Shown: positions 9,143 through 17,960 of the stretch, one piece after another | How the letters are laid out: every line of letters begins with the position of its first letter | Numbering within the stretch: position 1 is the first letter of the stretch | Virus record (IMG/VR): IMGVR_UViG_2531839468_000008 | Location: 1-23,301 of that record | Direction: 5' to 3' (one strand) | DNA length: 23,301 nt | Origin: a virus | Taxonomy: Duplodnaviria > Heunggongvirae > Uroviricota > Caudoviricetes | Program-made: the position numbers and the translations under genes | The notes under the pieces: model-generated | Database searches by the model: none | What the model saw: only the letters and a program-made list of their open reading frames with translations | What the model was told of the DNA's origin: nothing

Positions 9143-9613
9143 ATGAAGGATGGTGCGCTGCTCAGGAGTTCTTCACTTTTTATTGCCTACATGGGATGCC
9201 TTGGATGGGGGAGTGCTTATTTCTATGGATGGGGTACTTCTTTTTACTACGGCTTCCCATGGTGGATTGTAGGTGCAGGTGTTGATGATGTTGCCAGAAG
9301 TTTATTTTTTGCAGTTATCGTCATTGCTATATTTCTTATCGGTTGGGGTATTGGTGTTGTATTCTTTTTCGCAGTGAAAAGAAAACATTCTATGCAAGAG
9401 CTAAATGTATTTCGCCTTTATTTTGCTGTGGAATTATTGTTTGTGCCGGCAATTATTGAGTTTTCTATATTGAGACAGAAGATTCAGGTACCTCTTTTGC
9501 TACTGTCAGCAGCGATTGCGCTGGCAGTTACAATTTCGATAAGATCTTATGGGCGATTTTTATCGGTATCATGCTTCTATGATAAGCCATTTATAAAAAA
9601 CATTTTTTTGTAG
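9143..9613 (+). CDS. Predicted multi-pass membrane protein of unknown function (Trp/Tyr/Gly/Phe-rich), in an AT-rich island
   Basis: ORF with SD-like GGGGTGG 4 nt upstream of the ATG at 9143; three to four hydrophobic segments (e.g. FFAVIVIAIFLIGWGIGVVFFFAV). The reading frame may continue past 9613 if a homopolymer length is wrong (see findings). Confidence 0.5.
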   Translation: MKDGALLRSSSLFIAYMGCLGWGSAYFYGWGTSFYYGFPWWIVGAGVDDVARSLFFAVIVIAIFLIGWGIGVVFFFAVKRKHSMQELNVFRLYFAVELLFVPAIIEFSILRQKIQVPLLLLSAAIALAVTISIRSYGRFLSVSCFYDKPFIKNIFL

Positions 9614-10288
9614 ATTGTGATGATTGCTTTTGTGGCATATTTCTGGCTTTTTCATTTCTGACAGGATATTACAAACCGCAGTTTAAGAAAGAATATGAAA
9701 TGATTAATTATAATGATGGTTGGTATTATGTTCTTGCTCGTTATGATAATTGTCTGGTTTTGTCTACTTCTTTCAATGCAGGTAGTAAAAGGTTTGTCAT
9801 TTATCAATCAGCACAAGATAAGAATCTTCAGGTTGATATTGTAAGGACCAGAATTTAATCGGCTGCATAAATAATATTTTAAGTTGCAAGTTGGCTATTC
9901 GTAGGAATAGAACCTTAGGCATGCTGAATGCGTTTTCTGAACATTGTTTTATAAACTGTGTCTGCTTGCTGTTGTGATCCTGCTTTTAGTGATGGTGATG
10001 ATGGATTTCACCAGCAGGATAATGTTGGTACTGACTGATGGCGCTCTGGTCTGCGGCATTGTGGTATTGCTGTGGCCGATGATGAAAGAACAGAATGAAT
10101 AATTCTTGACTTTTTTGTTTACTGTTTATTAAAAAATCAACCGCATGGTGAATCCTCCTTGGAGGGGCTAAATGATCGAGTTTTAAGGGCACGTAGCGAG
10201 TTCTGTTTGATCATTGCAGAACTTAGCGGGAGGCGCCATGCGTACATCACTAATGTTATTTCCTTCTATCATTTTCCTTGTGAGTTCT

Positions 10289-10315
10289 GGCTGCGCATGG
10301 CGCGGCCTTTTTTTT
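10289..10315 (+). terminator. Intrinsic terminator upstream of the nanS-like gene
   Basis: 8-bp stem GGCTGCGC / GCGCGGCC (one G·U pair) with a 3-nt loop, followed by eight T residues (10308-10315). Confidence 0.65.
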
Positions 10316-10401
10316 ATGACCTGCCACTGGCAGATGGTCATCCTGTGATTTGATTCCGGTTCCGGCTTTTTAACTCTGTTCCTGTACACGGGAGAAATTC
10401 G

Positions 10402-15554: not shown

Positions 15555-16063
15555 GTGGCTACGCAGACTGAAGTTGCCAGGCATTTAAGTCTGACCGATC
15601 GCCAGCTTCGCAGATTGCAGAAATTGCCGGGTGCCCCGATATCAAATAAGCGAGGGCAACTGGATCTGGATGCCTGGCGCGATTTTTACATATCGTATCT
15701 GAGGAGAAGTAAAAACGATGTGCCTGATTGGCGATAGCGAAGACGACTATGAGGAAAAATTGCTTATTGCCAGATGGGAACTGACAGCAGAACAGGCTGT
15801 TACACAGCAGTTAAAAATGAGGTGTCAAAGGAAAACTTATTGACACCGGGTTCTGTATTTTTGCCCTCAGTAAGCTGGCAATGGCGTTATCCAGTACGCT
15901 TGATTCCATCCCTTTATCCATGCAACGACAGTTTCCTGATTTAACACCGCGCCATCTTGACCATCTGAAAACCCTTATTGCGAAGGGGGCAAATCAGTGT
16001 GCGCGGGCGGGGGATAAATTACCGGATTTACTCGATGAATATATCAGAGCAACAACTGAATAA
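15555..16063 (+). pseudogene. nu1: Terminase small subunit Nu1, reading frame changes twice (or read errors)
   Basis: N-terminal part in ORF 15555-15737 (GTG start, HTH-like); C-terminal part in ORF 15881-16063 (…LSKLAMALSSTLDSIPLSMQRQFPDLTPRHLDHLK…, parallel to lambda Nu1 …LSRIAGEIASILDGLPLSVQRRFPELENRHVDFLK…). The middle segment is readable only in the third frame; shifts lie near A-runs at 15711-15715 and 15827-15835. Confidence 0.75.
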
Positions 16064-17960
16064 TATGATGAGTACTGTCACAACAGCATTACAGCCCCTG
16101 ATAAGGGCATTGCCGGTGACGCCAGTTGAATGGGCTGATCAAAATTATTATCTGCCGAAAGAATCTTCATATGGTGAGGGAGAATGGAAAACGCTGCCAT
16201 TCCAGATCGCCATTATGAACTGTATGGGTAACGACCAGGTTCGCACGGTTAACCTGATTAAATCTGCCCGTGTTGGCTATACAAAGATGTTGCTGGGGGT
16301 GGTCGGGTATTTATTGAGCATAAATCCCGAAACAGTCTGCTTTTTCAGCCCACGGATTCTGCCGCTGAAGATTTTATGAAGTCTCACGCGGAGGCGACGA
16401 TTAGGGACGTGCCATGCCTGAAAGACCTTTCCCCATGGCTGGGTCGTAAACATCGTGATAATACCCTCACGCTGAAACGCTTTTCATCGGGTGTGGGCTT
16501 CTGGTGCCTGGGCGGCGCTGCCGCCAAAAACTACCGTGAAAAATCCGTGGACGTGGTCTGCTATGACGAACTTTCCTCGTTCGAGCCGGATGTCGAAAAA
16601 GAGGGCTCGCCAACCCTGCTGGGGGATAAACGTATTGAGGGCTCTGTATGGCCAAAATCCATTCGCGGCTCGACGCCTAAAATCAAAGGCACCTGTCAGA
16701 TCGAAAAAGCCGCTAACGAGTCGGCACATTTTATGCGTTTTTATGTGTCCTGCCCGCACTGTGGGGAGGCGCAGTATCTGAAATTTGGCGATGAGTCCAC
16801 GCCTTTTGGCCTTAAATGGGAGAAGGACAGCCCCGAAAGCGTTTTCTACCTCTGTGAACATCATGGCTGCGTGATCCATCAGTCTGAGCTTGACCAGAAC
16901 AACGGGCGGTGGATCTGTGAAAACACGGGCATGTGGACCCGTGACGGCCTGATGTTTTTCAGCGCCCGGGGTGATGAAATTCCGCCGCCGCGCTCCATCA
17001 CTTTCCACATCTGGACGGCGTACAGTCCGTTCACCACCTGGGTACAGATAGTCTATGACTGGCTGGATGCACTGAAAGATCCCAACGGCCTGAAAACCTT
17101 TGTGAACACCACGCTGGGCGAGACCTGGGAAGAGGCCGTGGGCGAAAAACTCGATCACCAGGTACTGATGGATAAGGTGGTGCGCTACACGGCGGCGGTG
17201 CCTGCCCGGGTGGTTTATCTGACGGCGGGCATTGACTCGCAGCGAAACCGTTTTGAGATGTATGTCTGGGGATGGGCTCCGGGAGAGGAAGCCTTTCTGG
17301 TGGATAAAATCATCATTATGGGGCGTCCTGATGAGGAAGAGACGCTGTTACGTGTGGACGCGGCGATCAACAAAAAATACCGCCATGCAGACGGAACCGA
17401 AATGACCATTTCCCGTGTCTGCTGGGACACCGGGGGATCGATGGCGAAATCGTTTATCAGAGGTCAAAAAACACGGTGTTTTCCGGGTGCTGCCGGTAAA
17501 AGGCGCATCTGTCTATGGCAAGACCGGTGATCACCATGCCAAAAACCCGCAATCAGCGGGGCGTGTATCTGTGTGAAGTGGGGACGGACACCGCAAAAGA
17601 ATTCTCTATGCCCGTATGAAAGCCGATCCCACGCCTGTGGATGAAGCCACGTCGTATGCCATCCGTTTTCCTGATGATCCGGAGATTTTTTCGCAGACAG
17701 AGGCGCAGCAACTGGTCGCGGAAGAGCTTGTGGAGAAGTGGGAAAAAGGAAAGATGCGTCTGCTGTGGGATAACAAAAAGCGGCGTAACGAAGCGCTGGA
17801 CTGCCTGGTGTATGCCTACGCGGCATTACGTGTGTCCGTGCAACGCTGGCAGCTTGATCTGGCTGTACTGGCAAAATCCCGGGAGGAAGAGACGACCCGG
17901 CCAACCCTTAAAGAACTGGCAGCGAAGCTGTCCGGAGGAGTGAATGGTTACAGTCGCTGA
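16035..17960 (+). pseudogene. A: Terminase large subunit A, split over about five frame changes (or read errors)
   Basis: Lambda gpA-like segments read in successive frames: MNISEQQLNNMM…MLLGVVGY (to about 16310); FIEHK…WDTGG (ORF 16376-17530); IDGEIVYQRSK; KHGVFRVLPVKGASVYGK; PVITMPKTRNQRGVYLCEVGTDTAKE; then ORF 17616-17960. Shifts are at T-run 16308-16313, G5 17432-17436, A6 17466-17471, near 17510-17520 and A4 17594-17597. Confidence 0.85.

Follow-up and report, generated by a model that had tools for sequence, protein, structure and literature searches.

The Membrane Protein Gene as Written in the Contig

The DNA analyzed here is the 23,301-nucleotide (nt) sequence of IMG/VR record IMGVR_UViG_2531839468_000008 (Caudoviricetes), hereafter called the window. 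The window is the entire contig AFDT01000019.1 from the draft assembly of Escherichia coli 3030-1 (GCA_000225085.2), and the coordinates of the two correspond one-to-one. Our subject is the region between positions 9143 and 9858, where the coding sequence for a membrane protein is distributed over three reading frames. The features of the broken gene are as follows.

9143–9613, plus strand: N-terminal fragment, 152 correct codons followed by N-I-F-L and TAG; identical to EGW91665.1, deposited as a "putative membrane protein" (156 amino acids, aa)
9595–9600, plus strand: A6 run; A7 in the intact allele (–1 indel)
9603–9609, plus strand: T7 run; same length in the intact allele
9611, plus strand: inserted T; changes GAG to GTAG, makes the TAG at 9611–9613, and returns the original frame (+1 indel)
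9614–9647, plus strand: middle stretch encoding the native IVMIAFVAYFW in the same frame as the N-terminal fragment
9648–9652, plus strand: T5 run; T6 in the intact allele (–1 indel), shifting the rest of the gene to a third frame
9649–9858, plus strand: C-terminal remainder with the end of the last transmembrane helix, the YKPQFKKEYEM motif, and a beta-strand domain; TAA at 9856–9858; includes the 52-aa open reading frame (ORF) 9700–9858

The N-terminal ORF ends with the TAG at 9611–9613, and its start is placed at 9101 in a mechanical ORF listing and at 9143 in the gene call of the depositor. The sequence surrounding this stop codon is CCATTTATAAAAAACATTTTTTTGTAG, in which the A6 and T7 runs are found. 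A second frame is open from 9586 to 9858 (90 codons and a stop) with the translation AIYKKHFFVDCDDCFCGIFLAFSFLTGYYKPQFKKEYEMINYNDGWYYVLARYDNCLVLSTSFNAGSKRFVIYQSAQDKNLQVDIVRTRI, in short a product that contains KKHFFVDCDDCFCGIFLAFSFLTGYYKPQFKKEYEMINYNDGWYY and terminates in VRTRI, and the ATG at 9700 begins the 52-aa ORF within it. The stop, the two runs, the open frame, and the ATG had all been reported in a first-pass annotation made from the letters of the window, and all were confirmed in the sequence. The protein encoded by approximately 9649–9858 is identical, residue for residue, to the C-terminus of a conserved protein, and thus the frame from 9586 to 9858 is not open by chance.

The Intact Allele in Related Prophages

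By megablast, the region from 9050 to 9950 is present in 692 of 5426 complete E. coli genomes and in phages 434 and 2B8. In phage 434 (CPT_434_68, UMO75332.1, "putative membrane protein") and in E. coli prophages (WP_001302581.1) the locus holds one intact ORF of 744 nt, which encodes 247 aa from the start chosen by PGAP (9116 in the window) or 238 aa from the ATG at 9143. Other relatives with an intact ORF include about 680 of the complete E. coli genomes and about 100 IMG/VR contigs. The proposal of the first-pass annotation that the N-terminal ORF is a truncated piece of one membrane protein, about 240 aa long, whose gene is interrupted at a homopolymer, is borne out by these relatives.

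In alignments to at least four relatives, three one-nucleotide indels set the window apart from the intact allele: A6 in place of A7, one additional T at 9611, and T5 in place of T6. In all other respects the gene is very close to WP_001302581.1/UMO75332.1, with the same gene neighbours, 99.3% nucleotide identity, two synonymous differences, and no amino acid substitutions. The first two indels cancel out, so the N-terminal frame returns to the native IVMIAFVAYFWLF, a part of the native EIVMIAFVAYFWL, directly behind the TAG. As written, the sequence is spread over three frames; with the three indels reverted, it becomes one continuous ORF of about 236–240 aa. The conserved motifs GWGSAYFYGWG, in the N-terminal part, and YFWxFSxxxGxYKPQxKKEY, past the break, are both encoded without substitutions, and the second is cut by the T5 frameshift.

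It had been suggested that a single base added to one of the two runs would repair the gene. One added base does fuse the frames into a protein of 238 or 247 aa, but three indels separate the window from the intact allele, and 13 residues of the last helix would be wrong in the product. The native EIVMIAFVAYFWL would be replaced by VDCDDCFCGIFLA, bringing three Asp residues into the last transmembrane helix, whose hydropathy score would fall from 2.15 to 1.62. The further hydrophobic segment that had been read in the frame 9586–9858 has the same difficulty, in that its stretch VDCDDCFCGIFLA is an out-of-frame reading.

Positions 9143–9858 are thus one gene for a conserved prophage inner-membrane protein of 238 aa, directly downstream of the late antiterminator Q, and three one-base indels written into contig AFDT01000019.1 cut it over three frames. 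These indels are most likely base-calling or assembly errors, in which case the real strain 3030-1 would carry the intact gene.

Conservation of the Single Reading Frame

The gene family is already catalogued as PF27470, as PHROG 1521, and as the "STM1630 family" of PGAP. The intact allele matches phrog_1521 over the whole profile with an E-value of 1.9e-154, and PF27470 is precomputed on 104 of 104 homologues, including the 156-aa product of the window. Orthologues with 39–68% identity, each a single ORF of 236–238 aa, were found in Citrobacter rodentium, C. freundii, Cronobacter, Klebsiella, Enterobacter, Salmonella, Yersinia, and E. albertii. The comparison with orthologous loci that had been recommended as a check therefore returned a fused reading frame, and PGAP already annotates the equivalent A6 alleles as "frameshifted". 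Conserved columns flank the break on both sides, and those past it include F172, Y175, F176, W177, YKPQxKKEY, and W203–Y205 (247-aa numbering). An exhaustive profile search yielded only 72 representative clusters, and the full-length distant members (12–28% identity, 230–307 aa) also cross the break. Judged from these comparisons, the single ORF is the ancestral form.

Many short database entries start exactly at profile position 159/160, just past the tract. Three further PHROGs families, phrog_14371 (residues 10–166), phrog_17164 (10–94), and phrog_3985 (169–247), match only sub-ranges of the intact allele (L002, 1567–2310) and for that reason appear to have been built from fragments of the phrog_1521 protein. 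The boundary between phrog_14371 and phrog_3985 (166/169) falls just past the A7/T7 site, which shows that deposited phage genomes often have the gene divided at this point.

An AlphaFold2 model was obtained from an alignment of 41 sequences (predicted local distance difference test score, pLDDT, 86; predicted template modelling score 0.80); a run with 26 close homologues (pLDDT 59) was not used. The model consists of long helices at residues 12–45, 56–88, 97–120, 125–146, and 164–190, followed by a five-strand beta domain at 196–241 (247-aa numbering). From the hydropathy, the distribution of Lys and Arg, and the positive-inside rule, the protein probably has five membrane spans with its N-terminus inside and the beta domain outside, in the periplasm. 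The lesion sits in a positively charged loop ahead of the last span. Since this is before the last helix, the 156-aa product as written would be without that helix and the beta domain.

These data bear on the alternative that the 52-aa ORF at 9700–9858 is an independent small gene and that the 156-aa protein is complete as written. The ATG and the open frame do exist, and the exact 52-aa sequence has been deposited as a protein in other genomes. However, those deposited entries derive from broken genes or contig ends, and the Met in question is internal to the KKEYEM motif, where the surrounding K191, E193, and Y194 are nearly invariant and the Met itself is the majority residue, with Thr or Ala in several orthologues. 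The segment is fused in all orthologues, and in the AlphaFold model it forms a confident beta domain connected to the helix bundle. On the strength of the internal Met, the fused orthologues, and the joined model, the separate 52-aa protein that had been offered as an option was rejected, and we give it next to no credence.

One-Base Indels Across the Contig

The one-base indels were counted by aligning the full window with two close prophages (L004 and L005). Approximately 17 were found, most of them relative to both references, in clusters at 1737–3732, 9601–10308, 14227, and 15728–17600. Deletions account for 12 of the approximately 17, and 11 of those 12 shorten a run; in total, 13 of the approximately 17 alter the length of a run. 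The run-shortening deletions include A7 to A6 (twice), A6 to A5 (twice), G6 to G5, T6 to T5, T4 to T3, and A4 to A3. In two insertions, T7-G-[T] at 9611 and AA-G-[A] at 17523, the base of a run recurs one position beyond its end, a pattern that resembles the carry-forward error of pyrosequencing. In addition to the membrane protein gene, cII, terS, and terL are broken by the indels listed below.

3675 and 3732: cII
15728, 15818, and 15827: terS
16310, 17432, 17466, 17523, and 17600: terL
14227: one further indel, at the end of an Rz-like gene

In the terS/terL stretch, four net extra bases are present in all of its closest relatives. There are three indels and no substitutions in terS, and no gene has acquired a new stop codon by substitution. 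Most genes have more synonymous than non-synonymous differences (41 versus 5 for the portal and 41 versus 7 for the major capsid protein, to give two examples), and the P and ren genes are 100% identical to those of L004. The indels thus have the marks of an artefact: they were seen in no other sequence searched, fall mainly in homopolymers, and greatly exceed the substitutions in number.

The replication gene O (3818–4755) also differs from that of L004, with 39 nt of indels within an alignment that is otherwise 94% identical. This difference is probably a variation of repeat number inside the gene and not a frameshift.

Other Alleles at the Homopolymer Tract

Among the IMG/VR contigs that could be typed at the site, 99 of 102 have A7/T7 without the extra T, and the remaining 3 have A6 only. 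The three-indel allele was found in none of these 102 contigs, and the T inserted at 9611 is absent from them and from every reference locus. Nor was this allele found in any of 682 complete E. coli genomes at an identity of at least 99% over 91 nt, in metagenome contigs by an exact-pattern scan, or in species-representative genomes by a degenerate-pattern scan, where the lone matching contig carries the intact allele. The exact 156-aa product (EGW91665.1) is recorded on one contig only, which is the window itself.

The A6-only allele occurs in 10 of the 682 complete genomes, about 1.5% of the gene carriers; some of these are in error-prone assemblies and one is in a clean-looking one. In strain EC12 (L110, 2070–2782) the allele is A6/T6/T5, so that all three homopolymers are one base short, and its neighbours, KilAC and Rha, are frameshifted as well. 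The EC12 copy clearly illustrates a systematic under-calling of these same homopolymers. AUSMDU00014361 has a neighbourhood similar to that of EC12, with other phage genes marked as "frameshifted". The A6 alleles found elsewhere are broken at the same A-run as the window, and that of EC12 shares the T5 as well, but none has the T inserted at 9611 or the exact combination seen in the window. Some of them lie near other frameshifted phage genes, and one does not.

The variety of alleles at this site could be taken to mean that A7-C-A-T7 is a functional switch, in which phase variation or programmed slippage, of the ribosome or during transcription, would turn the protein on and off or yield two products. 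Other assemblies do show several indel alleles at the exact site, including A6, A6 with T6 (ending in KNIF), and T8 (ending in KKHFF), and PHROGs has separate families for the two halves of the protein. The tract, however, is not conserved, and the homologous codons in C. rodentium (AGAAAGCATAACCTTGAG), Salmonella (CGAAGGCATTGTTTCACT), and an enterotoxigenic E. coli (ETEC) copy (CGTCAGTACCGGATTGAG) contain no A or T run. Runs of 6–7 are short for a contingency locus, at least 97% of the copies are in the intact phase, and several of the variant alleles are from visibly error-prone assemblies. The allele in the window also needs three frame changes, which is beyond any single slippage event. 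A programmed frameshift or phase switch was rejected because the tract is unconserved, the runs are short, at least 97% of the copies are intact, and three frame changes are required; we regard it as extremely improbable. Somewhat less remote, though still very doubtful, is a genuine slippage hot spot that disables the membrane protein in a few lysogens, with the 3030-1 allele as a real and further-decayed "off" state.

The intact E. coli prophage allele was also encountered in JAIITD010000172.1 (L006, 3054 nt), a contig binned as part of a Veillonella sp. metagenome-assembled genome. This is almost certainly a case of mis-binning or contamination.

Sequencing Error or Pseudogene

The main rival to an error is that the indels are real, and that the gene is a genuine pseudogene in a decaying, defective lambdoid prophage of strain 3030-1, perhaps after a mutator phase deficient in mismatch repair. 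The breaks in cII, terS, and terL on the same contig are what a dead prophage would show. Broken alleles are recorded in other sequences: A6 is found in 10 complete genomes and 3 IMG/VR contigs in addition to the A6/T6/T5 of EC12, and at least one A6 allele sits among phage genes that are otherwise unframeshifted. Moreover, among the IMG/VR copies that are readable from the start codon to a stop, 11 of 87 are truncated somewhere. Set against this, the three-indel allele is confined to a single contig, and indels greatly outnumber substitutions wherever both can be counted (3 versus 0 in terS, and 3 versus 2, both synonymous, in the membrane protein gene). Nonsense substitutions are absent and non-synonymous ones are not in excess, P and ren are unchanged relative to a close prophage, and the frameshifts are not accompanied by any insertion sequence (IS) or large deletion. 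The T7-G-[T] and AA-G-[A] insertions are also atypical of slippage. On balance we consider a real pseudogene unlikely, although it deserves far more weight than any of the other alternatives.

Many frameshifts with no nonsense mutations and almost no substitutions are unlike natural decay, and this pattern, together with the under-calls of EC12, favours error. The evidence strongly suggests that the break is artificial, a sequencing error and not a real mutation, and its most likely cause is a sequencing or assembly error in the draft contig. Several points weigh against this conclusion. The error is inferred and not shown; the 2011 batch of drafts to which this assembly belongs may have been pyrosequenced, but the platform used for strain 3030-1 was not found in a literature search. 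The T inserted at 9611 is not a change in the length of a homopolymer, and defective prophages that carry real frameshifts are common in E. coli. Finally, the closest relative of terL is 97.8% identical, and with no very close relative the contig-specific ratio of indels to substitutions is not measurable in terL.

Start Site and Gene Neighbourhood

A promoter-like site precedes the gene, and a small membrane protein gene follows it.

9096–9125, plus strand: promoter-like site, TTGTTA, an 18-nt spacer, and TG-TATCAT (extended –10); a consensus match only
9944–10102, plus strand: DUF3927/TciB-like small membrane protein gene, the intact downstream neighbour, outside the broken gene and in the same order as in phage 434 and E. 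coli prophages

The number of promoter-like sites in the region is not above that expected from shuffled sequence. The site at 9096–9125 overlaps the ATG codons at 9101 and 9116, an argument for 9143 as the true start. A Shine–Dalgarno-like sequence, GGGGTGG, lies at 9134–9140, ahead of the ATG at 9143. All of the orthologues begin at a Met that matches position 9143; the true product is therefore probably 238 aa in length, and the PGAP start at 9116 and the ATG at 9101 are probably over-extended.

The gene order in phage 434 and in E. coli prophages is the Q antiterminator, the 744-nt ORF, the DUF3927/TciB-like gene, an SASA (NanS-p-type) esterase, and the lysis genes. The names TciA and TciB could be traced only to the naming of the neighbouring gene in phage P1. 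Upstream of the SASA esterase gene there is a terminator-like hairpin at 10289–10317 (8 pairs, 7 of them G-C) followed by T8. The relative L004 has T7 after this hairpin, one more difference in homopolymer length. The broken gene is best regarded as accessory and non-structural; it lies directly downstream of Q in the prophage and has a promoter-like site of its own.

Relatives Outside Prophages and the Role of the Family

Some orthologues adjoin genes associated with virulence, namely, eltAB in IS-rich ETEC contigs, where the two are divergent, sseJ in Salmonella, and lpxR in C. rodentium. Their positions in the loci examined are given below.

L113 and L114, 4001–4714: virulence-gene-adjoining orthologues
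L112, 4001–4717: virulence-gene-adjoining orthologue
L111, 4001–4717: virulence-gene-adjoining orthologue

From its position beside sseJ, we infer that the Salmonella orthologue (P0075) is STM1630 of Salmonella Typhimurium. STM1630 is 46% identical to the prophage protein and shares its length of 238 aa, its single ORF, and its layout of helices plus a beta domain, but it is chromosomal, lies outside a Q-to-lysis late region, and is without the A7-C-A-T7 tract. STM1630 was previously selected for study from intra-macrophage RNA-seq data, and its deletion did not cause a defect in intracellular replication (PMC6785131). The homologue on an ETEC plasmid (P0044), beside the heat-labile enterotoxin genes eltAB, is likewise a full-length single ORF of the PF27470 family (237 aa, 59% identity). 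It differs in being divergent from the toxin genes, in having IS elements and not phage late genes as neighbours, and in the absence of the homopolymer tract.

Scans of the intact protein with Pfam, NCBIfam, and PADLOC gave no matches, PF27470 being absent from the copies of Pfam and NCBIfam that were scanned, and in PHROGs only families of "unknown function" were matched. A Foldseek search of BFVD returned nothing at an E-value of 0.001 or less, and a profile search of the PDB sequences returned nothing. Thus, no relative in fold or sequence with a known function was found in the profile libraries, the PDB sequences, or BFVD. The Pfam short name of PF27470, "TfpB", could not be traced; in the literature searched, "TfpB" refers to a type IV pilus ATPase or to a chemical or anaesthesia acronym.

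PF27470 is a family with a confident predicted fold that has no solved analogue, and its members recur near virulence genes. With so many one-base indels in AFDT01000019.1, the broken cII, terS, and terL genes are suspect and should not be taken as biology without resequencing. The break in the membrane protein gene is a matter of annotation and sequence quality in one draft contig and is of little biological weight. EGW91665.1 (156 aa) and the 52-aa ORF should be read together as one protein of 238 aa.
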